Source of the DNA: an uncultured Candidatus Saccharibacteria bacterium
Lineage (GTDB): Bacteria; Patescibacteriota; Minisyncoccia; Phycocordibacterales; Phycocordibacteraceae
Direction: 5' to 3'
DNA length: 62,469 nt
Assembly (NCBI GenBank): GCA_964398865.1
Contig: CAYNOO010000004.1
Span: 1 to 62,469, forward strand
Program-made: the position numbers and the translations under genes
The notes under the pieces: generated by a model
Told to the model about the DNA's origin: nothing
Database searches by the model: none
The model's input: the letters and a program-made list of their open reading frames with translations, nothing else
Shown: in pieces, positions 5,061 to 48,508 of the stretch
How the letters are laid out: each line of letters starts with the position of its first letter
Numbering within the stretch: the first letter of the stretch is position 1

Positions 5061-5686
5061 TGTGGTTTGAGTGCAGTTACAAGATATCCTAACGGGTAAT
5101 CAGACGGCTGGTATTTCTTTCCCAAGAGTCCCGCAAATTTCGCGAAGAGGTAATCAGAAATACGCGCAAGCGGGTTCATGAACAATGAAAGCGGTTGCAA
5201 AAATCTTGGCAACAAGCGCTCGAGTAATACCCATCGGACGGCAAACACTCCAGTTCCGAGCGGGGTCACGGAAATGTTCGAAAAACCCGAAGATAAAAGC
5301 GCTTTCGTGAGCGCTTCCCCGGAATAGCGATGAAAGTCGCTCGGCGAAGGATGGTATGGAAACAAAAACGGTACGACGATTATGATACTGCCGCCAGGCT
5401 TTAGGACTCGTGCGCTCTCGCCAATGAGCTGACGATATTCAAAGATATGTTCAAGAACATTGATGAGAAGGGCGCCATCGTATGAACTCTTAGTAAACGG
5501 AAGTGGTTTCTCCAAATCAACAACGACATCAGGCTTCGTGCCTTCAAGATTTGCGGTGGTAATGGAAAAATCTCCCTTAAAAAGCTTGTGATATTCCGAC
5601 CGAGAATCCCCACCCAGGTCAACCACGGCACCCGAAAGCGTGATGCTTTTCAGGGCTTGATATTCTGCTTTCCGAAGAATGGTCAT
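5057..5686 (-). CDS. Class I SAM-dependent methyltransferase (type 11)
   Basis: VVDLGG, NVLEHI, RVLKPGG, YHPSPSDFHRYS. Confidence 0.75.
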   Translation of the reverse strand: MTILRKAEYQALKSITLSGAVVDLGGDSRSEYHKLFKGDFSITTANLEGTKPDVVVDLEKPLPFTKSSYDGALLINVLEHIFEYRQLIGESARVLKPGGSIIIVVPFLFPYHPSPSDFHRYSGEALTKALLSSGFSNISVTPLGTGVFAVRWVLLERLLPRFLQPLSLFMNPLARISDYLFAKFAGLLGKKYQPSDYPLGYLVTALKPQ

Positions 5687-5691
5687 GACTC

Positions 5692-6717
5692 TTATAATAA
5701 CGCTTTCATGAGAGTGCTGGCTAAGGCATCCAGGCTCTGTGTTTTCTTAACCGCTTCCTCTCCGCTTCTCTGCAGTGCTTGAAATTCAGCGTCCGACATT
5801 CGTATCATTCGCTCCAGCGCATTGGCAAGCGCGCTTGAATCATTCTCAGGTACGACCCATCGAGCGGGTACGAGATCTGCAAACGCCAAACTTGAAATGA
5901 TCACAGGAGTTCCGCATGCCATCGATTCAAGAACTGACTTATCAAAATGTCCTGACGCCGCAAGATTCACCGAAACGCCCGCAGCACTGTAAAGGTTCGG
6001 TGTCTCATGATTGGGCACAGGACCTTTAAACACAACAGCGCCGGAATCTATAAGGTCCGCAAAACGATTACGAAGTTCCGGACCATACGCGCTGTCTTCT
6101 GGACCGACAAGCATGACAGTCGCAGGAAGTCGCTCGCGCAGGTGTCGGAGTGCTTCAAGTAGGATATGAACGCGCTTCGATGGCATTATCCTGCCTTGTG
6201 AGTAAATGAGTTGCCGATTGCGAACGACTTCCGGTTGCAATTTAAAAACATCAATATCGATTCCGGCTGGCATGCGGCGAGCGTGTGAAAAACCGGAGGA
6301 GCCAGCATATGGTGAAGTGAAAAAGATGATCTCCGCAAAAGAAGCAGCGATGGCGAGCCTGAGTCCTTTATGCGGATGGTTGTACCAGAGGCTTATGGGT
6401 TTTCGCCAGAGTTTCCATAAGAAACCCGCGAGCATAACATATTCTGGATTCATGTGAACAAATACCTTGTCGTACTCTTTTCGTAGATTCCACGCGAGGT
6501 ACAGAAAGCGCATCGAGTATAAGAATTTATTCCCTCCACCCTGCTCTTTTCCGATTGAGTGGACATGGACATTGGCAGGCAGCGTGTGTTTACCTTCTTT
6601 CAAACAAATAACTTCTACTTGCTCGACGTGCTTTGAAAATTCTTCAATCCATTTATGCATGAACCCGAGTATGGGGTCATCCCTATCGACAATCTGCGTG
6701 ACGATCAGCAATCTCAT
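5692..6717 (-). CDS. GT4 glycosyltransferase
   Basis: GRIMPSKRVH, FDKSVLESMACGTPVI. Confidence 0.85.
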   Translation of the reverse strand: MRLLIVTQIVDRDDPILGFMHKWIEEFSKHVEQVEVICLKEGKHTLPANVHVHSIGKEQGGGNKFLYSMRFLYLAWNLRKEYDKVFVHMNPEYVMLAGFLWKLWRKPISLWYNHPHKGLRLAIAASFAEIIFFTSPYAGSSGFSHARRMPAGIDIDVFKLQPEVVRNRQLIYSQGRIMPSKRVHILLEALRHLRERLPATVMLVGPEDSAYGPELRNRFADLIDSGAVVFKGPVPNHETPNLYSAAGVSVNLAASGHFDKSVLESMACGTPVIISSLAFADLVPARWVVPENDSSALANALERMIRMSDAEFQALQRSGEEAVKKTQSLDALASTLMKALL

Positions 6718-7286
6718 AAGAGTTCATCGAACGAGCGAATAACAGAATGAGTACCGCTACCTGGCTTCCCGTCACGCCGCATTTCATACAAAGAGACTTC
6801 TGGGCAATGTGTTCGCACAGAATCAAGCTGTGCTGCAAGATCATCGACGAACGCATACGGCGGAACGAAATCCTTTAAGAGAGGCTGGAGTGCTATCCCC
6901 TTCTCACGATCGTGCGCATAGATGACGCGTTCTATGGAAAGCCCTGCAAGAGCACTCCCGAGTTTGGATTTAATCCACGCCTCATGTCCGTAAGACAAGA
7001 TGACTGATTCATTGCCGTGAGCGCCAAGAAATCGGACGGCATCGGGAAATACGAAATGGGACAACTCACCCGGTGCAAAAACGAGTTTTCCGTCAACACA
7101 AAGCTGGTTAAGTTTCTCCCACACTTCCACACGACCGGTGCCGCCCTGTATCGTGGAATCGCGAGGCGTACTGACCAAGGCGCGTATCTCTTCTTTCAAC
7201 TCGACACATGCCGGATTATCAATCAAGGTTGGAGTGAATGAATCGGTATCAAAAAGAGTCCTATCAAAATCGAGAAAATAGGTCAT
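6714..7286 (-). CDS. HAD-superfamily hydrolase
   Basis: N-terminal DFDRTLFD (motif I), K, FVDD (motif IV). Confidence 0.65.
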   Translation of the reverse strand: MTYFLDFDRTLFDTDSFTPTLIDNPACVELKEEIRALVSTPRDSTIQGGTGRVEVWEKLNQLCVDGKLVFAPGELSHFVFPDAVRFLGAHGNESVILSYGHEAWIKSKLGSALAGLSIERVIYAHDREKGIALQPLLKDFVPPYAFVDDLAAQLDSVRTHCPEVSLYEMRRDGKPGSGTHSVIRSFDELL

Positions 7287-8383
7287 AGAAGCGATTGAAC
7301 TACGTCAGCAATTTTTTTCGGATCATGACGGATAAGACTTCGCTCAATGACATCTCCTTCAATCTTGGGGAGTGGTAACACATCAGCAAATATCCCGCGT
7401 ATCACACCAGGAGTTTTTCCTAGGTCATCAACCACGGGAAAAGCCATCTTTTTTGCATAGTACTCAAGGATGTCTTCAGGAACAGTACCCGAGTGCACGA
7501 TTACATAATCAGGTTTCCTTCCTGCATACCTTTCGATCTCTTCCAGGTGACGAGATGCACTGTAGCCACTCGTTTCAGAAGCGGTGCTAAAAATATTCAC
7601 GAAGTAGATAAGGCGCGCGCGCGATCGTCGGACAGCCTCGCGGAGTCCAGGAACAGCAAAGTTCGCGAGAGTAGATGTATACAAATCTCCTGGTCCAAGA
7701 ATGATGAAATCAGCAGAGTCCACTGCAAGCTCTGCTTCATCCGCTAAGGTTAGCTGTTCGGATATACTCAATGCAACAATTGGAGGTCCACCAGGAGCTC
7801 GTGCATTGATTGCATGCTGACCAACAATTTTCTCACCGTTTGCAAGCTCTGCAATGAGTGTCGCAGGGTAATCTGATACGGGAACTACATATCCGCGAAC
7901 CCGCAAAATCTCTGAGACGGCGCGAATTGCTGCGCCATCGGAACCCAGCTTGTCCGTGAGAGCAGTTAGAAGCAGGTTACCGAGATTATGTCCTTTGACA
8001 TCTCCTTTTGAGAATCGATACGTGAAAATGTCGCGAAGCATTGTCCCATCTTTTGCGAGCGCGACAAGCGCTTGCCTCGCGTCCCCCAACGGGAGAAAAC
8101 CATATGAGTCACGAAGTCTGCCTGTTGAGCCGCCGTCGTCTGCAACGGATACGATCGCTGAAAGCGAGATGCGCGGCAAAGATTTCAGTGCCGAAAGAAC
8201 AACGAAGGTGCCGGTACCGCCGCCGATAGTGACGACGCGTTTTGTATTCGTTATGAACCGATGACCAGAGAGAAGTGCGTTACGCACGGCATAGAGACGA
8301 CTTTCCGCACTGCGAACGGGGTCAAAAATTGCACGAAGATGCATCTTGATGCGACGAGTAATGTCTAAACGGGGTTTCTTCAT
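7283..8383 (-). CDS. YvcK/GlmR (CofD-like, UPF0052) family protein, paralog 2
   Basis: IGGGTG, VADDGGSTGRLR, GHNLGNL, LGPGDLYTS, RHDP. Confidence 0.85.
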   Translation of the reverse strand: MKKPRLDITRRIKMHLRAIFDPVRSAESRLYAVRNALLSGHRFITNTKRVVTIGGGTGTFVVLSALKSLPRISLSAIVSVADDGGSTGRLRDSYGFLPLGDARQALVALAKDGTMLRDIFTYRFSKGDVKGHNLGNLLLTALTDKLGSDGAAIRAVSEILRVRGYVVPVSDYPATLIAELANGEKIVGQHAINARAPGGPPIVALSISEQLTLADEAELAVDSADFIILGPGDLYTSTLANFAVPGLREAVRRSRARLIYFVNIFSTASETSGYSASRHLEEIERYAGRKPDYVIVHSGTVPEDILEYYAKKMAFPVVDDLGKTPGVIRGIFADVLPLPKIEGDVIERSLIRHDPKKIADVVQSLL

Positions 8384-9363
8384 AGTAATGCGGTAAGCGC
8401 GGAAGCAATTTTCTTCGAATCATGACGGATAAGGCTTCGGGGAAGGACGTCTCCCGCGACTTTCTTCGCAACGATCACGTCAGCGAATGATCCGCGAATA
8501 ATTGAAGAGTCATTCGGTAGATCATCAATGATGGGAAGTTCTTGTTCTTTCTCGTAGAGCTCCAAGACATCTTTTGGAAATGTGCCGACATGCATTATGA
8601 TCGCGTCGGGGCGTCTACCGGCATAGCGAGTAATCTCTTCGACGTGACGCGACGCACTATAGCCATCGGTCTGACCAGCCTTCGTAAATAAGTTAACAAT
8701 GTAGACAAGCCGCGCTTTCGCGCTTGCAACCGTACCAGTGAGTCCTGACACTGCGAAATTAGCGAGAGTAGAAGCGTAAAGATCACCGGGACCAAGAACA
8801 AGCATATCGGCTTCAACAACTGCTTCTGCTGCATCCTTTGATATAGAGATAGATTCTTTCGTCTCAAGAGATGTTATGGGTGATCTGCCTGGCGTACGTT
8901 CGTCTATTTTGTGTTCGCTTACTATTATCTCTCCATTCTCAAGGTGCGCCACTAGCGTCGCAGGCGTATCTGAAACTGGCACTACGTGTCCGTCAACCCG
9001 CAATATCTGCGACGCCGCCTCTATCGCTGCAGCGTCTGATCCTAATATGTCAGTCAACGCAGTTAAAAACAAATTTCCGAAGTTATGTCCGTTGATGTCG
9101 CCCTTAGGAAATCGATAATTAAAAAGTGAGCGCATGAGAGGTGCGCCGTTATCATCAGCAAGCGCAATAAGCGCTTGCCTGGCATCTCCCAACGGGAGGA
9201 AGCCGTACGAGTCACGAAGTCTGCCTGTTGAGCCGCCGTCGTCTGCAACAGAGACAATCGCTTTCAAAGATACATTCGGCACGTGCTTCAAGCCCGACAA
9301 CACGACAAACGTGCCGGTGCCGCCCCCGATGGTTACGATGCGCTTTCCTGATCCGTCCCCCAT
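8380..9363 (-). CDS. YvcK/GlmR (CofD-like, UPF0052) family protein, paralog 1
   Basis: IGGGTG, VADDGGSTGRLR, GHNFGNL, LGPGDLYAS, RHDS. Confidence 0.85.
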   Translation of the reverse strand: MGDGSGKRIVTIGGGTGTFVVLSGLKHVPNVSLKAIVSVADDGGSTGRLRDSYGFLPLGDARQALIALADDNGAPLMRSLFNYRFPKGDINGHNFGNLFLTALTDILGSDAAAIEAASQILRVDGHVVPVSDTPATLVAHLENGEIIVSEHKIDERTPGRSPITSLETKESISISKDAAEAVVEADMLVLGPGDLYASTLANFAVSGLTGTVASAKARLVYIVNLFTKAGQTDGYSASRHVEEITRYAGRRPDAIIMHVGTFPKDVLELYEKEQELPIIDDLPNDSSIIRGSFADVIVAKKVAGDVLPRSLIRHDSKKIASALTALL

Positions 9364-22367: not shown

Positions 22368-22709
22368 ATGAAAACGTATACAGGTGGATGCCACTGCAAG
22401 GCGGTGCGCTACGAAGTTGAAACGGATTTGGGGAAAGTGCTCACCTGCAACTGCTCGCACTGTGAGGCGAAGGGGCTCCTCTTGAACTTTGTGGATAAAG
22501 ACAAATTCAAACTGCTTTCAGGAAAAGAACACCTGACCGATTATCGATTTAACAAGAAAGCCATCCGCCATCTGTTTTGCAACATCTGCGGAACACAATC
22601 ATTCTCGGAGGGTGTTGAGTTTCCGAAAGTGGCTATAAATGTCCGCTGCCTCGATGGCATCGATATCGCTGCGCTTACTCTCACGCCTTACAACGGAAAG
22701 GAATACTAG
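22368..22709 (+). CDS. GFA (CENP-V) family zinc protein
   Basis: GGCHC, CNCSHC, HLFCNICG, AINVRCL. Confidence 0.9.
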   Translation: MKTYTGGCHCKAVRYEVETDLGKVLTCNCSHCEAKGLLLNFVDKDKFKLLSGKEHLTDYRFNKKAIRHLFCNICGTQSFSEGVEFPKVAINVRCLDGIDIAALTLTPYNGKEY

Positions 22710-23095: not shown

Positions 23096-25129
23096 ATGCT
23101 CAATTTCAAAAAAAATAAAGTGCTCAAAGCAATACTGGGATCCTCAGAAGAGGGTACCGCTGTATTTAGCGCTGACCACACACTACTCTTTCTCAATGCA
23201 GCAATGACTAGCGCAACAGGCGACAATGCGACCGATATAGGTAATTCCAGCGAGAATCTCGCAAAGAAGCACCAAATAGTCACCATGGAGGGCGATTCGC
23301 TCAAACCGGAAGATTTTCCTATCAGCCGCGCGCTTAGAGGTGAGGAGACTCACAATGAACCATATGTATATATAGACTTGGACGGACGACATCGATGGCT
23401 TTCGGTTTCGTGCGTATGTATCAGAGACGAAACGGGCGCCCTTGTGTATGTAGTCAAGACCGTTCACGATGTCTGGCACATCAACTCATGCGAAGACAGG
23501 CTTCAGTTCATGCTAGGATCGGCAAAAATTCTTTCTAAGAAAATTGATTTTCGCACATGGCTTTTAGAAAAAGCAAAACTGACAGTTCCATCGCTCGCCG
23601 ACTGGTGCGCTATAGATGTCTTGAACGAGCACGGCGGCTTAGAGCGTATCGCAGTGATTCACCAAGACTCGAAGATGACCGACTATCTTTTTGAATTTGA
23701 GAAACGTTTTCCCACAACCGAAAAAAACTCAGCAGATCTCTATACCGTCATCAGGACAGGCGAAGCACAATTGGTACCTGTTGTAACCGATGAAACAACG
23801 CGGCAAGGCGCACGGTCACCTGAACATCTTGCGGCAATGCAGCGACTGGGATTGAAATCACTCATGATCATTCCCATTTTTGCACGCGGCAAAACACTTG
23901 GTGCGCTCTCGCTTGGGTACACAGACTCCGGTCGTGTGTACACGAAGGAGGACTCCGAGTTCTTCAGAGAGTTTTGCAATGACCTCGGTATCGTACTTGA
24001 GAACGGTCGCCTTGACGATGAAATAGCCGACCGCGATAAAGCTAAAGATCTCTTCCTGGCTTCCCTCTCGCACGAACTCCGGAACCCCTTGGCGCCCATC
24101 AAGAGCGCTCTCGAGCTTCTTAAACTGCGTGAGACTACCACTGATGTGCGCGAGGAATTGGACGTAATCGAACACCAATTCGATCATCTCGCGAAACTCC
24201 TCGGAGATCTTCTTGATGTCACACGCTTCACGCAGGCAAAGATTGAAATCGTGCCCCAAACCCTAGAGTTGCGTAAGCTCGTGGAGCGCGCGCTTAAAGC
24301 GAGCGAGGGCTTGTTGCATGCCTCTGACATCACCCTCCATGTTACCTATCCGAGTACGCCCTTACCCGTATGGGCGGACGACACGCGACTCGAGCAAGCC
24401 ATAACGAACGTGATGAACAACGCCGTCAAGTTTACACCTTCCGGCGGCTCCATCTGGGTAGATTTGTTAAAAGAAGGAGAATCTGCAGTCCTTAAGATTC
24501 GCGACAACGGAGCCGGCATACATCACAGCGACTTGCCTAATATCTTTGAAATGTATTATCGGGGAAACAATAGCAACAATACGAGCGGACTCGGCATCGG
24601 GCTTCTGCTCGTGCAGAAGATAGTAGAATTGCATCGGGGTACAATTTCGGCAGCAAGCGAAGGAATAGGTAGAGGGAGTGAATTTGTTATTAAGCTCCCC
24701 ATCACGGATATCCGGAGCTTCCCGTCCGAGCCCGCATCACACGGAAGCGCGAGTAAAATGAGCGGACGCGTGCTTATAGTTGATGACAACGTGCTAGCCG
24801 CAGACTCGCTCACTAAACTCTTAAATAGGTTGGGCGCACACGCGGAAGCGCGCTACTCGGGCAAAGATGCCCTTCTCCATGAGAGGCTTTCTGCTTTCGA
24901 TATCATTATTCTTGATATCGGCATGCCGCACATGGATGGATACAAGGTCGTCCAGGCTCTCCGTGCTCGCGGCGTGCAGGTGCCTATTGTCGCACTCACC
25001 GGATACGGTCTTTCGGAAGACAAGCAGAAAGCCCTCGATGCTGGTTTTACCGCACACCTCACAAAACCTATCAGCATCAAGGAACTCGACGAAACCTTCA
25101 AAGAGTTTCTGCCTCCAATACTAATTTGA
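23096..25129 (+). CDS. Hybrid sensor histidine kinase/response regulator (PAS-like, GAF, HisKA, HATPase, REC)
   Basis: SHELRNPL, NAVKFT, DNGAGI, GLGIGL, REC ILDIGMP...LTKP. Confidence 0.9.
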   Translation: MLNFKKNKVLKAILGSSEEGTAVFSADHTLLFLNAAMTSATGDNATDIGNSSENLAKKHQIVTMEGDSLKPEDFPISRALRGEETHNEPYVYIDLDGRHRWLSVSCVCIRDETGALVYVVKTVHDVWHINSCEDRLQFMLGSAKILSKKIDFRTWLLEKAKLTVPSLADWCAIDVLNEHGGLERIAVIHQDSKMTDYLFEFEKRFPTTEKNSADLYTVIRTGEAQLVPVVTDETTRQGARSPEHLAAMQRLGLKSLMIIPIFARGKTLGALSLGYTDSGRVYTKEDSEFFREFCNDLGIVLENGRLDDEIADRDKAKDLFLASLSHELRNPLAPIKSALELLKLRETTTDVREELDVIEHQFDHLAKLLGDLLDVTRFTQAKIEIVPQTLELRKLVERALKASEGLLHASDITLHVTYPSTPLPVWADDTRLEQAITNVMNNAVKFTPSGGSIWVDLLKEGESAVLKIRDNGAGIHHSDLPNIFEMYYRGNNSNNTSGLGIGLLLVQKIVELHRGTISAASEGIGRGSEFVIKLPITDIRSFPSEPASHGSASKMSGRVLIVDDNVLAADSLTKLLNRLGAHAEARYSGKDALLHERLSAFDIIILDIGMPHMDGYKVVQALRARGVQVPIVALTGYGLSEDKQKALDAGFTAHLTKPISIKELDETFKEFLPPILI

Positions 25130-44621: not shown

Positions 44622-46667
<2,046 letters not shown>

Positions 46668-46689
46668 CTAGAAACGTATTTCTTCAAAA

Positions 46690-46806
46690 TCAGCAATTGA
46701 AGAATAGCGAGCATACGATGCAGCATCTATTTGGCGTACTGAGCACGGCGCCACATCCTCCTTTACATGAATACTCACCCCCTGATTCAAAATTTTCAGC
46801 GTTCAT
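46690..46806 (-). CDS. Six-cysteine small peptide 2 (38 aa): MNAENFESGGEYSCKGGCGAVLSTPNRCCIVCSLFFNC
   Basis: Own translation, below ORF-track cutoff; paralog of adjacent peptide with synonymous-biased divergence. Confidence 0.75.
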   Translation of the reverse strand: MNAENFESGGEYSCKGGCGAVLSTPNRCCIVCSLFFNC

Positions 46807-46813
46807 GTATACC

Positions 46814-46924
46814 TTAGCACTTTCTTGCTATTGAACAGATGACGCAACATTTCCCTGGCGCACTGAGCATCCCACCGCATCCTCCTTTGCAGGGGAATTC
46901 ACCACCCGGACCCGTCCTATCCAT
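46814..46924 (-). CDS. Six-cysteine small peptide 1 (36 aa): MDRTGPGGEFPCKGGCGGMLSAPGKCCVICSIARKC
   Basis: Own translation; alternative in-frame ATGs at 46942 and 46954. Confidence 0.75.
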   Translation of the reverse strand: MDRTGPGGEFPCKGGCGGMLSAPGKCCVICSIARKC

Positions 46925-47038
46925 GTTCCCTTCTGCTCTCATATCAAGATGCATTGTGAAGAAAGAAATCTACTCTGGCAATTCCTCACTGAATCGATAA
47001 GGCTTGAACCCATCTAATTTAATAAAAACGCCACGATA

Positions 47039-47611
47039 TCAACTAACCGCATTTAACATTTTATTCTTCCTATACTCCCGTTCAACGCGGAAAGCAACCC
47101 AAATAGGTCCTATGCCGATTATCCAGAAAAAAATCGCACCGACATTGAAGTGCGAAGAAGAAAGGAAAAAAGTACTAGCAAACTTGTCTAGCGTGTAATA
47201 GAGACCGAGACCTGCAATCGCCCACAAATGACCTTTATAAGTAAAGTAAAGAAGCGGAATATAGATAATCAAACTCCAAAAAACATCCCAAAATGATATT
47301 TGTATATCGCTACCGACCAAGTTTATCAAAATTACGAATGTTAGACCAATTGCAAGTAGCGCAAGAATCGTGAGTACCGCGATACCTCTTGAAGACTTAG
47401 AGAACGGCAGTACATCATGTTTCTCAATCTGCAACTTTAATTCTTCGTCAGAAATATTAAACGTATTAAGAAAGCCGTTCTTTTTCTTTGATGCTTTTGT
47501 GTCTTTGGTTTCTTCAGAAGGTATCCCTGCAATTAATGCCTGACCACATTTTGCACAAAACTTCTCATGTCCTTTTTGTGCACCACCACAGTTTGAACAA
47601 TAGATATTCAT
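47039..47611 (-). CDS. Zinc-ribbon N-terminal membrane protein
   Basis: MNIYCSNCG...FCAKCG then about 4 TM. Start moved from 47668. Confidence 0.7.
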   Translation of the reverse strand: MNIYCSNCGGAQKGHEKFCAKCGQALIAGIPSEETKDTKASKKKNGFLNTFNISDEELKLQIEKHDVLPFSKSSRGIAVLTILALLAIGLTFVILINLVGSDIQISFWDVFWSLIIYIPLLYFTYKGHLWAIAGLGLYYTLDKFASTFFLSSSHFNVGAIFFWIIGIGPIWVAFRVEREYRKNKMLNAVS

Positions 47612-47621
47612 AAAAAAATAA

Positions 47622-48191
47622 TTAATATAGTTTTTTAAACTCCTTTTTCCATATCGGCTTAGTAGCAAAAACCACGTACTGTACTCCTAAACGTATAAGC
47701 TTAAGAATCGTCCAAGTCATTAACAACGCCAAAAGGCTATAGAAGAACCAAGGTCCATAATCTGCTTCATTATACGAGGGAACAAAAGTGTAGTTCTTAT
47801 AAGCAGGGGCGCTGTAGGAATAATAATTAGTCCTGTCATAAGCACAAAGTATTCTCGCCTTTTCGTCATCGTAAGAACTCAAACTATCACCGTAAAGGTA
47901 AATGCTATTGTTTCCTGGAGCATAGCTTTTGCCGTTATTACATTGGATTGTGGAGAGATTCTCATCCAAGGTACGATGTGGTATAGAAGAAAATGCAGCG
48001 ACACAAACAACTCCTATACTCCCCACATACAAAAGAATGTACGCGACCTTTAAAAGCCTATACCACCATTTTTCTCCTGATGCGGGAGTGATAAAAATAC
48101 GCTTGTTACTTTCGGAATGAACAGGTGCGCCACATTTCGTACAAAACTTATCGGAGCTATCTAATTTGTTGCCGCATTTTTCGCAAAACAT
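47622..48191 (-). CDS. Zinc-ribbon N-terminal membrane protein
   Basis: MFCEKCG...FCTKCG, TM, extracytoplasmic loop with 2 Cys, TM. Confidence 0.7.
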   Translation of the reverse strand: MFCEKCGNKLDSSDKFCTKCGAPVHSESNKRIFITPASGEKWWYRLLKVAYILLYVGSIGVVCVAAFSSIPHRTLDENLSTIQCNNGKSYAPGNNSIYLYGDSLSSYDDEKARILCAYDRTNYYSYSAPAYKNYTFVPSYNEADYGPWFFYSLLALLMTWTILKLIRLGVQYVVFATKPIWKKEFKKLY

Positions 48192-48262: not shown

Positions 48263-48508
48263 TTATATCTCCGAAGACGGAGTAGGGTTTGCGAAGGAGG
48301 GACCGTTCTCGGTATAGGCGTCAGTCTTGTGTTCACCTGAGATAGCGCGCATAAGCCAGAGACGTTCTTGGCGAACGAGAAATCCTAAACCCATAACGAT
48401 AACTCCAAACAAAACTGCGAACGTCATTTTAATAACGTTAGGAAAACCAGTGAACGGCAAGAATGCGAGTAGGAGACCGAGCACTAATATGGTGGAGCCT
48501 TTTGACAT
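48263..48508 (-). CDS. Small two-TM hypothetical protein
   Basis: LG...AFLPFTGFP...K; TACACT 6 nt upstream. Confidence 0.6.
   Translation of the reverse strand: MSKGSTILVLGLLLAFLPFTGFPNVIKMTFAVLFGVIVMGLGFLVRQERLWLMRAISGEHKTDAYTENGPSFANPTPSSEI

Follow-up and report, generated by a model that had tools for sequence, protein, structure and literature searches.

Introduction

One-domain zinc-finger micro-proteins are an established kind of small protein, and those of the C(P)XCG type have been studied in Haloferax volcanii (PMC11241148, PMC10716476). Here we describe a pair of tandem genes, pep1 and pep2, for six-cysteine peptides of 42 and 38 amino acids in a 62,469-nt stretch of DNA from an uncultured bacterium of the Patescibacteriota (contig CAYNOO010000004.1, positions 1 to 62,469; "the window" below means this whole stretch). 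Peptides so small and so rich in cysteine bring to mind several other described systems, namely SCIFF and the other ranthipeptides, the class II bacteriocins and competence pheromones with double-glycine leaders, the small metallothioneins, and the inhibitor cystine knot (ICK) peptides or knottins.

Patescibacteria have tiny genomes in which roughly half of the genes have no known function, and their small open reading frames (ORFs) are systematically missed by gene callers. The metallothionein MymT was likewise once an overlooked small ORF. A first-pass annotation of the window, made from its letters alone, had pointed to the pair and proposed a micro-protein family that would be metal-binding, disulfide-knotted, or the precursor of a peptide made by the ribosome and modified after translation (RiPP). 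Of these three options we rank metal binding first.

Results

Two tandem genes for six-cysteine peptides

Two tandem minus-strand ORFs lie between the gene of a zinc-ribbon membrane protein (47039..47668) and ligA (44622..46643). The first, pep1 (46814..46942, minus strand), encodes a six-Cys microprotein of 42 aa, MRAEGNMDRTGPGGEFPCKGGCGGMLSAPGKCCVICSIARKC, and ends with TAA. The second, pep2 (46690..46806, minus strand), encodes a paralogue of 38 aa, MNAENFESGGEYSCKGGCGAVLSTPNRCCIVCSLFFNC, and ends with TGA; it is specific to the lineage of the window and is the faster-evolving copy. The stop codon of pep1 and the ATG of pep2 are separated by the 7 nt GGTATAC (46807..46813, minus strand), and, with pep1 as the reference, pep2 lies in the +1 frame. 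Both peptides share the Cys framework C-x3-C-x9-CC-x2-C-x5-C, and in both the last residue is Cys. The pair had thus been described correctly in the first-pass annotation as two tandem, Cys-terminal ORFs 7 nt apart, with pep1 in a 36-aa form that begins at 46924. The tandem junction was found, without any difference, in independent Logan assemblies of four groundwater metagenomes. The source of the window is a CPR (candidate phyla radiation) bacterium from groundwater, of the Paceibacteria type.

The longest ORF of pep1 (46814..46954) has 46 codons for amino acids and contains in-frame ATGs at 46954, 46942 and 46924, the last of which gives the 36-aa form. We took 46942 as the start because in the alignment this ATG falls in the same columns as the start codon of the orthologues from three related metagenome-assembled genomes (MAGs), Parcubacteria bacterium Greene0714_7 (L001), Paceibacterota SO_2017_GW3_33 (L002) and Gw_Eff_bin_311 (L023), whose peptides start with MRAEGNMDRTGP, MNEDVSIARTGP and MKEVVNIDRTGP, respectively. 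Choosing the start by a Shine-Dalgarno motif was discarded, since the genome has almost none: the motif is nearly absent among 54 long ORFs of the window. In many of these a TAnnAT-like box precedes the start by 6-10 nt, a sign that the mRNAs may have very short leaders or none. Upstream of pep1 there is a promoter-like site, TTGCCA-17 nt-CACAAT (46953..46981, minus strand), a consensus match only; 10 nt separate the end of its -10 box from the ATG at 46942. The tryptic peptides expected from the pair are TGPGGEFPCK, GGCGGMLSAPGK and GGCGAVLSTPNR.

Selection on the encoded protein

The two peptides resemble each other far beyond chance (BLASTP E = 2e-14). Their Smith-Waterman score is 123, and 20000 shuffles gave 26.3 +/- 5.3 with a maximum of 69, so that 0 of 20000 reached the observed score. 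From GGE to the end, 17 of 30 residues are identical and 8 of these 17 are encoded by different synonymous codons; our recount by hand gave the same numbers as the first-pass annotation, which had read them as selection on the protein. Comparison with the orthologues supports that reading through a low ratio of non-synonymous to synonymous rates (dN/dS), a polymorphism that is all synonymous, and a sense frame that stays open, as follows.

Between copies of the gene, the proportion of differing non-synonymous sites (pN) was 0.13-0.33 and that of synonymous sites (pS) 0.62-0.82, the synonymous sites being saturated. Where dS could be estimated, dN/dS was 0.13-0.26, and for pep1 against its orthologues it was 0.13 or lower. 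The changes between L001 and L002 fall 4/7/25 on the first, second and third codon positions, so third positions prevail, and between L001 and L023 there are four changes, all of them synonymous. The version of the gene carried by L001 and L023, which we call allele A, was recovered as five DNA haplotypes from different SRA projects; they differ at 6 sites, all of them synonymous, and two more synonymous variants of this allele were found in a further run (X5). No frameshift or stop was found in homologous loci, all of which are intact. Against the orthologues, pN was 0.28-0.33 for pep2 and 0.15-0.20 for pep1. The non-synonymous rate of pep2 is thus about twice that of pep1, yet pep2 retains every invariant Cys, Gly, Ser and Pro residue.

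Invariant across all copies are the six Cys together with G14, G20, G21, G23, S27, P29 and S37, and residues 14-42 form a conserved module, G-x3-C-x-G-G-C-G-x3-S-x-P-x2-C-C-x2-C-S-x4-C, which ends at the carboxyl terminus. Conservation is lowest over the N-terminal 8-13 residues, where any two copies share 0-7 of 8-12 residues and pep2 has lost four codons.

A pair of antisense ORFs, whose third codon positions are shared with the peptides, is also open in the window (46697..46834 and 46839..47000, plus strand). A stop interrupts the antisense frame of L001 and of L023, and the Cys frame is open in every copy; therefore the Cys frame is the coding frame, and coding on the antisense strand was ruled out.

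A protein product might still be doubted, because ORFs of such small size have escaped every gene finder and neither a transcript nor a peptide of them is on record. The window locus was found in no RNA run. Three bioreactor metatranscriptomes and a fourth RNA-Seq run left ligA itself uncovered and are hence uninformative. Contigs from two runs of guessed RNA type join the gene of a two-transmembrane (2-TM) protein to the peptide gene; the library type is unconfirmed, and we did not count them. Even so, chance ORFs or a non-coding element such as a structured RNA would have to account for the dN/dS values, the antisense stop, the paralogy at E = 2e-14 and the synonymous polymorphism, and the locus had no Rfam match at E <= 1. 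We regard this explanation as very improbable and consider pep1 and pep2 almost certainly to be real protein-coding genes under purifying selection.

Absence from databases and annotation

The peptides had been described as unannotated, and indeed six exact sequences (start variants and orthologues) were all absent from 15 billion predicted proteins. Public gene tables of the syntenic contigs leave the peptide slot empty and never list the peptide. The peptides matched no family in Pfam and NCBIfam (hmmscan, E <= 10) or PADLOC, no PDB chain at E <= 10, and no phage record by tblastn; the best match among the PHROGs was phrog_31548 (E = 0.13-0.63), which we treated as noise. When 5.8 billion protein clusters were searched by words, neither the 46-aa peptide nor a five-sequence alignment gave a candidate. 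An exhaustive HMMER profile search of 1.84 billion representatives gave two matches, both spurious because they are long repetitive proteins in which weak repeats sum up, and it revealed no known domain of greater length whose decayed tail the peptides might be, as the first-pass annotation had allowed for. We found no paper on such peptides in bacteria of the candidate phyla radiation (CPR).

Scans of contigs with back-translated patterns were less sensitive. With a two-sequence profile, the scan of genome contigs found nothing and missed the true members L001 and L002; the scan of metagenome contigs found only the L002 contig, already known, and that of viral contigs found nothing. Since such narrow patterns missed true members, the family may be wider and distant members may have been overlooked. 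With no detectable relative outside a narrow clade of Paceibacteria, the proposal of a new micro-protein family holds. As judged from these comparisons of sequence, the peptides are a new orphan, lineage-restricted family of six-Cys microproteins, 38-42 aa long, in groundwater Paceibacteria/Parcubacteria.

Orthologues and turnover of the locus

Orthologues were located with LigA as the synteny anchor. In L001, L002 and L023, whose LigA is 83-84% identical, a single-copy orthologue lies directly upstream of ligA. Exact look-ups of the 81-aa 2-TM protein retrieved about 15 more public contigs from independent samples. Besides the three MAGs, about 10 public contigs carry an orthologue at the same place, always intact; the assemblies VMHB01, JBBAAE01 and JAGOSG01 are among those that have the peptide. 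The gene is missing from L003 (79% LigA identity) and from more distant genomes, in which a pilin-like gene lies directly upstream of ligA. It is also missing from L004 (85% LigA identity) and seven contigs (L055, L059-L064), where a clean deletion of about 124 nt has removed it; its first eight codons are left, without the ATG, and the spacer before ligA is intact. This deletion lineage, which includes SCTS01 and FW305_bin.14, was found in many samples. Because the peptide gene has been cleanly deleted within the clade, it is dispensable. The family is young, the locus is unstable and the gene is accessory, being duplicated in the window, single-copy in three relatives and deleted in a fourth.

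The orthologues themselves fall into two deeply different types. Across codons 1-32, allele A and the allele of the L002 type (allele B) are unlike at 35 of 96 nt, and 24 of the 32 third positions are among these; codons 33-43 show only 1 difference in 33 nt, and the flanking genes diverge by 3-8% (Fisher p = 7e-15). The divergent patch spans 5825-5920 in L001 and L002 and is orthologous to 46847-46942 of the window. When the same genomes, carriers of A and of B, were compared, pS was 0.34 for ligA and 0.14 for the TM gene. A further run (X6) holds a third variant, which is B-like. These data point to a sharply bounded, anciently diverged patch that may have arisen by introgression, by sorting of old tandem paralogues or as alleles long maintained by balancing selection. 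A diversity-generating retroelement was ruled out as the source of the A/B divergence, the changes being mostly at synonymous third positions and not adenine-specific.

The spacer before ligA

The gene downstream of the pair, ligA, encodes an NAD-dependent DNA ligase (Pfam) and is followed by gatC and gatA. The 46-nt spacer between pep2 and ligA (46644..46689, minus strand) is conserved across the clade far above the level of synonymous sites (alignment columns 373-406 are invariant), and it is kept where the peptide gene has been deleted. It contains a TACAAT that overlaps the first ATG of ligA and sits 7 nt before an ATG at the fourth codon, which is itself conserved. From this alignment the spacer element is probably ligA's own promoter. 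Because the conserved TACAAT overlaps the first ATG (46643), the real start of ligA is probably the conserved fourth-codon ATG at 46634.

The position of the pair directly 5' of ligA, on the same strand and with no terminator between, would suit upstream ORFs or leader peptides whose translation regulates ligA-gatCA and whose products are irrelevant. That role is hard to credit. A probable promoter of its own for ligA speaks against a purely regulatory role of the upstream ORFs, and this promoter-like element is retained after the peptide gene is lost. Not only Cys but also Gly, Ser and Pro are under purifying selection across saturated synonymous divergence, the deletion lineage persists in many samples, and there is no logical link between the supply of cysteine and ligA or gatCAB.

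A putative cytoplasmic metal-binding domain

We propose, with a probability of roughly 0.4, that the peptides are cytoplasmic, zinc-ribbon-like mini-domains that would bind metal through thiolates. No copy has a hydrophobic N-terminal segment, and since the peptides have no signal peptide, conserved leader, linked exporter or maturase, they would be expected to stay in the cytoplasm. A chain of such composition is unlikely to fold uncross-linked, and metal is the usual cross-link in the cytoplasm; for this reason the peptide would fold only around a metal held by its thiolates. The likely core would be a zinc-ribbon-like Cys4 site made of C18-x3-C22(G) and C33-x2-C36(S). Two more ligands could come from C32, which is vicinal, and from C42 at the C-terminus, either for a second metal or small cluster, or for a site of the Cu(I)/As(III)/Hg(II) type, which is thiophilic. 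The peptide may then serve as a small metal-buffering or partner-binding accessory protein.

Several features are consistent with this proposal. C22-x10-C33-x2-C36 has exactly the Cys spacing of the zinc ribbon that the neighbouring gene 47622..48191 encodes, and the Gly or Ser after the second Cys of each pair is invariant, as in knuckles of the CPxCG type. In hhalign, residues 21-37 align in register with CG-x9-C-x2-CG (KCGNKLDSSDKFCTKCG) of the adjacent zinc-ribbon protein; the match is weak (P = 0.0026, probability 11.5%), and a second zinc-ribbon comparison of the hhalign type was weaker still. AlphaFold2, run on a five-sequence alignment with no ligand, gave no confident fold (mean local confidence, pLDDT, 47.6), which is compatible with a fold that depends on metal and is not diagnostic of one.

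A number of observations weigh against metal binding. Profile hidden Markov models (HMMs) of zinc ribbons, rubredoxin, desulforedoxin and metallothioneins gave no match at E <= 10, and there was no match in the PDB. The first knuckle is C-x3-C rather than C-x2-C, the hhalign probability for a zinc ribbon is just 11%, and a zinc ribbon needs four Cys, which leaves the invariance of C32 and C42 unaccounted for. With its duplication, clean loss and deep A/B alleles, the gene behaves more like a conflict or communication gene than a housekeeping metalloprotein. The C-C-CC-C-C framework with a C-terminal Cys is typical of disulfide-rich secreted peptides. Finally, the search for a maturase or exporter covered just the window and the gene tables of the syntenic contigs.

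A different proposal is an exported, disulfide-rich peptide resembling the knottins, which could act as a bacteriocin, a signal or a host-directed effector and would leave the cell through an unlinked transporter in the style of the leaderless bacteriocins. The framework fits four of the five ICK loop ranges and ends on Cys. The locus turns over fast by duplication and deletion, and the A/B dimorphism is confined to codons 1-32. The scaffold Cys are fixed, and the loops and the N-terminus vary, a pattern typical of conflict and communication peptides. With loops of 3, 9, 0, 2 and 5 residues against the knottin consensus CX3-7CX3-6CX0-5CX1-4CX4-13C, however, loop 2 is above the consensus, at 9 residues where 3-6 are usual. 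There is no signal peptide or conserved leader, and the window has no exporter, immunity gene or Dsb/VKOR gene. A dN/dS ratio well below 1 gives no hint of diversifying selection, and the AlphaFold2 model (pLDDT 47.6) shows no knot. To our knowledge, bacterial knottins are very rare. We consider such a peptide unlikely. Still bolder is the idea that pep1 and pep2 are the first members of a CPR-specific, exported, cystine-knot-like family that acts between cells, in kin or pherotype recognition or on the host of the episymbiont; this role would account for the two deeply divergent alleles, for the presence of the gene in some lineages and its absence from others, and for a tandem duplication in which one copy evolves fast, and we hold it to be a long shot.

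The peptides could also be RiPP precursors of the ranthipeptide/sactipeptide, linear azol(in)e-containing or AviCys type, in which the N-terminus would be a short leader, residues 14-42 the core, and the maturase would be encoded elsewhere. The Cys-rich core with its GGCG, as in SCIFF or in microcin-B17-type sites, and the invariant Ser37 followed by the carboxyl-terminal Cys42 would fit such a precursor. Known RiPP precursors sit beside their maturase. Here, four genomic contexts show only housekeeping neighbours (rsmI, the 2-TM protein, ligA and gatCA), and HMMs of SCIFF and other precursors were unmatched at E <= 10. The putative leader is 8-13 aa long, poorly conserved and of different length in the two paralogues, and its GG is not conserved. 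A modified peptide is therefore quite doubtful in our judgement, and cytoplasmic metal binding remains the reading that we favour.

Genomic neighbourhood

A Pfam survey of about 50 ORFs of the window found no radical-SAM/SPASM, YcaO, lanthipeptide, HFCD, C39-ABC or Dsb gene. The gene tables of the syntenic contigs have no radical-SAM, YcaO, Lan or C39-ABC gene either, and list only rsmI, the 2-TM protein, ligA and gatC/A around the peptide. The first-pass annotation had likewise seen no radical-SAM enzyme, peptidase or transporter in the window; for radical-SAM enzymes, C39 peptidases and dedicated exporters this is correct, FtsEX and an M23 peptidase alone being present. No C39-peptidase ABC exporter is linked to the pair, and FtsE/FtsX is the sole ABC system in the window. 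The survey also identified sugar-nucleotide and glycosyltransferase genes, two CofD paralogues, PKD/LTD surface proteins, a hybrid histidine kinase, IMPDH, MetK, CTP synthase, RF, gatCA, ligA, rsmI, Mur ligases and a class-V aminotransferase.

The 81-aa protein with two transmembrane segments is encoded at 48263..48508 (minus strand), and in the relatives its gene stops 9 nt before the peptide ATG. In the window, two overlapping genes for membrane proteins with an N-terminal zinc ribbon (209 and 189 aa; 47039..47668 and 47622..48191, minus strand) are inserted between the 2-TM gene and pep1; neither is at this position in L001, L002, L004 or L023. In the L002-type lineage, L052 and L054 have an extra 84-aa ORF without a Pfam match between ligA and gatC (5533-5787), which L001 and L004 lack.

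The adjacency of a pilin gene and ligA is widely conserved in distant MAGs labelled as Parcubacteria or Saccharibacteria (L003, L005-L007, L009-L011, L013, L017-L020, L022, L024, L027, L030 and L049). The protein is type-IV-pilin-like, with RGFTLLLAVLVSS... at its N-terminus and ...NPLRLERAIRV.Y at its C-terminus.

Elsewhere in the window, two adjacent paralogues of the CofD family (2-phospho-L-lactate transferase-like; 7283-9363, minus strand) lie within a glycosyltransferase and sugar-nucleotide cluster, an odd context for CofD in CPR bacteria. A protein of the GFA family (glutathione-dependent formaldehyde-activating-like, Cys-rich, Zn; 22368-22709, plus strand) adjoins a PAS-GAF hybrid histidine kinase with a receiver domain (23096-25129, plus strand); such signalling genes seem uncommon in genomes so reduced.

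Discussion

Strong selection at the protein level could be shown here from sequence evolution alone, despite the absence of the peptides from 15 billion predicted proteins. The lesson is that CPR genomes need a six-frame, selection-based discovery of small ORFs. If the peptides do bind metal, they would add a new minimal Cys6 scaffold to the repertoire of small metalloproteins; if instead they are exported or modified, they would give a rare handle on communication or competition among ultra-small episymbionts. The natural variants with presence, absence and duplication of the gene in otherwise near-identical strains would be useful for comparative tests.

As far as their sequence features go, the peptides are not members of SCIFF, the zinc-ribbon Pfam families, the metallothioneins, desulforedoxin or the double-glycine bacteriocins, because for each of these families a defining trait was looked for and is missing. 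The resemblance to SCIFF noticed in the first-pass annotation is a case in point. Like the SCIFF peptides and other ranthipeptides (TIGR03973, with the maturase TIGR03974), pep1 and pep2 place six Cys within about 40-45 residues, carry a motif resembling GGCG and have a core rich in Cys at the C-terminus. They differ in Cys spacing and in their short, unconserved leader, and no radical-SAM/SPASM maturase is adjacent in the contexts examined. Neither this neighbourhood nor the HMM search, in which three versions of the peptide matched 0 NCBIfam families at E <= 10, bears out the relationship.

With the class II double-glycine bacteriocins and competence pheromones, the pair has in common the short peptide, the tandem paralogues and the deep allelic variants, which recall pherotypes. 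A double-glycine leader is recognized by a conserved GG (or GA/GS) that ends a conserved leader of 15-30 aa, and the peptides have none. GG stands at positions 13-14 of pep1, of pep2 and of allele B; allele A has EG there, and for this reason the idea of a double-glycine leader fails. The N-terminus is, moreover, the least conserved part of the peptides, and no C39 transporter is linked. In contrast to these bacteriocins, the leader is too short and variable, and no immunity gene, two-component partner or C39-ABC gene is adjacent.

Small metallothioneins and proteins with vicinal-Cys sites (MymT, SmtA/BmtA of PF02069, desulforedoxin of PF06397, and ArsD with its CC-x4-C) are likewise tiny, Cys-dense and cytoplasmic, and a vicinal CC beside a third Cys is a typical site for thiophilic metals. 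Unlike the pair, these proteins have other Cys motifs; there is no similarity by HMM or sequence, and no metal-resistance gene lies near pep1 and pep2. The knottins share with the pair the order of six Cys with an adjacent CC, the final Cys and the range of loops 1, 3, 4 and 5. They differ from the pair in that pep1 and pep2 are bacterial, lack a signal peptide, have a longer loop 2 and have no predicted knot.

The zinc-finger micro-proteins (PF13240, Zn_Ribbon_1, and the C(P)XCG proteins of Haloferax) differ from the pair, which has no match to a zinc-ribbon HMM, C-x3-C in place of C(P)xC, and two extra invariant Cys. They are alike in their size of fewer than 70 aa, the lack of a signal peptide, and the small residue after the Cys pairs. 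Such proteins are, like pep1 and pep2, often unannotated and accessory, and by analogy they may be the nearest functional counterpart of the two peptides.

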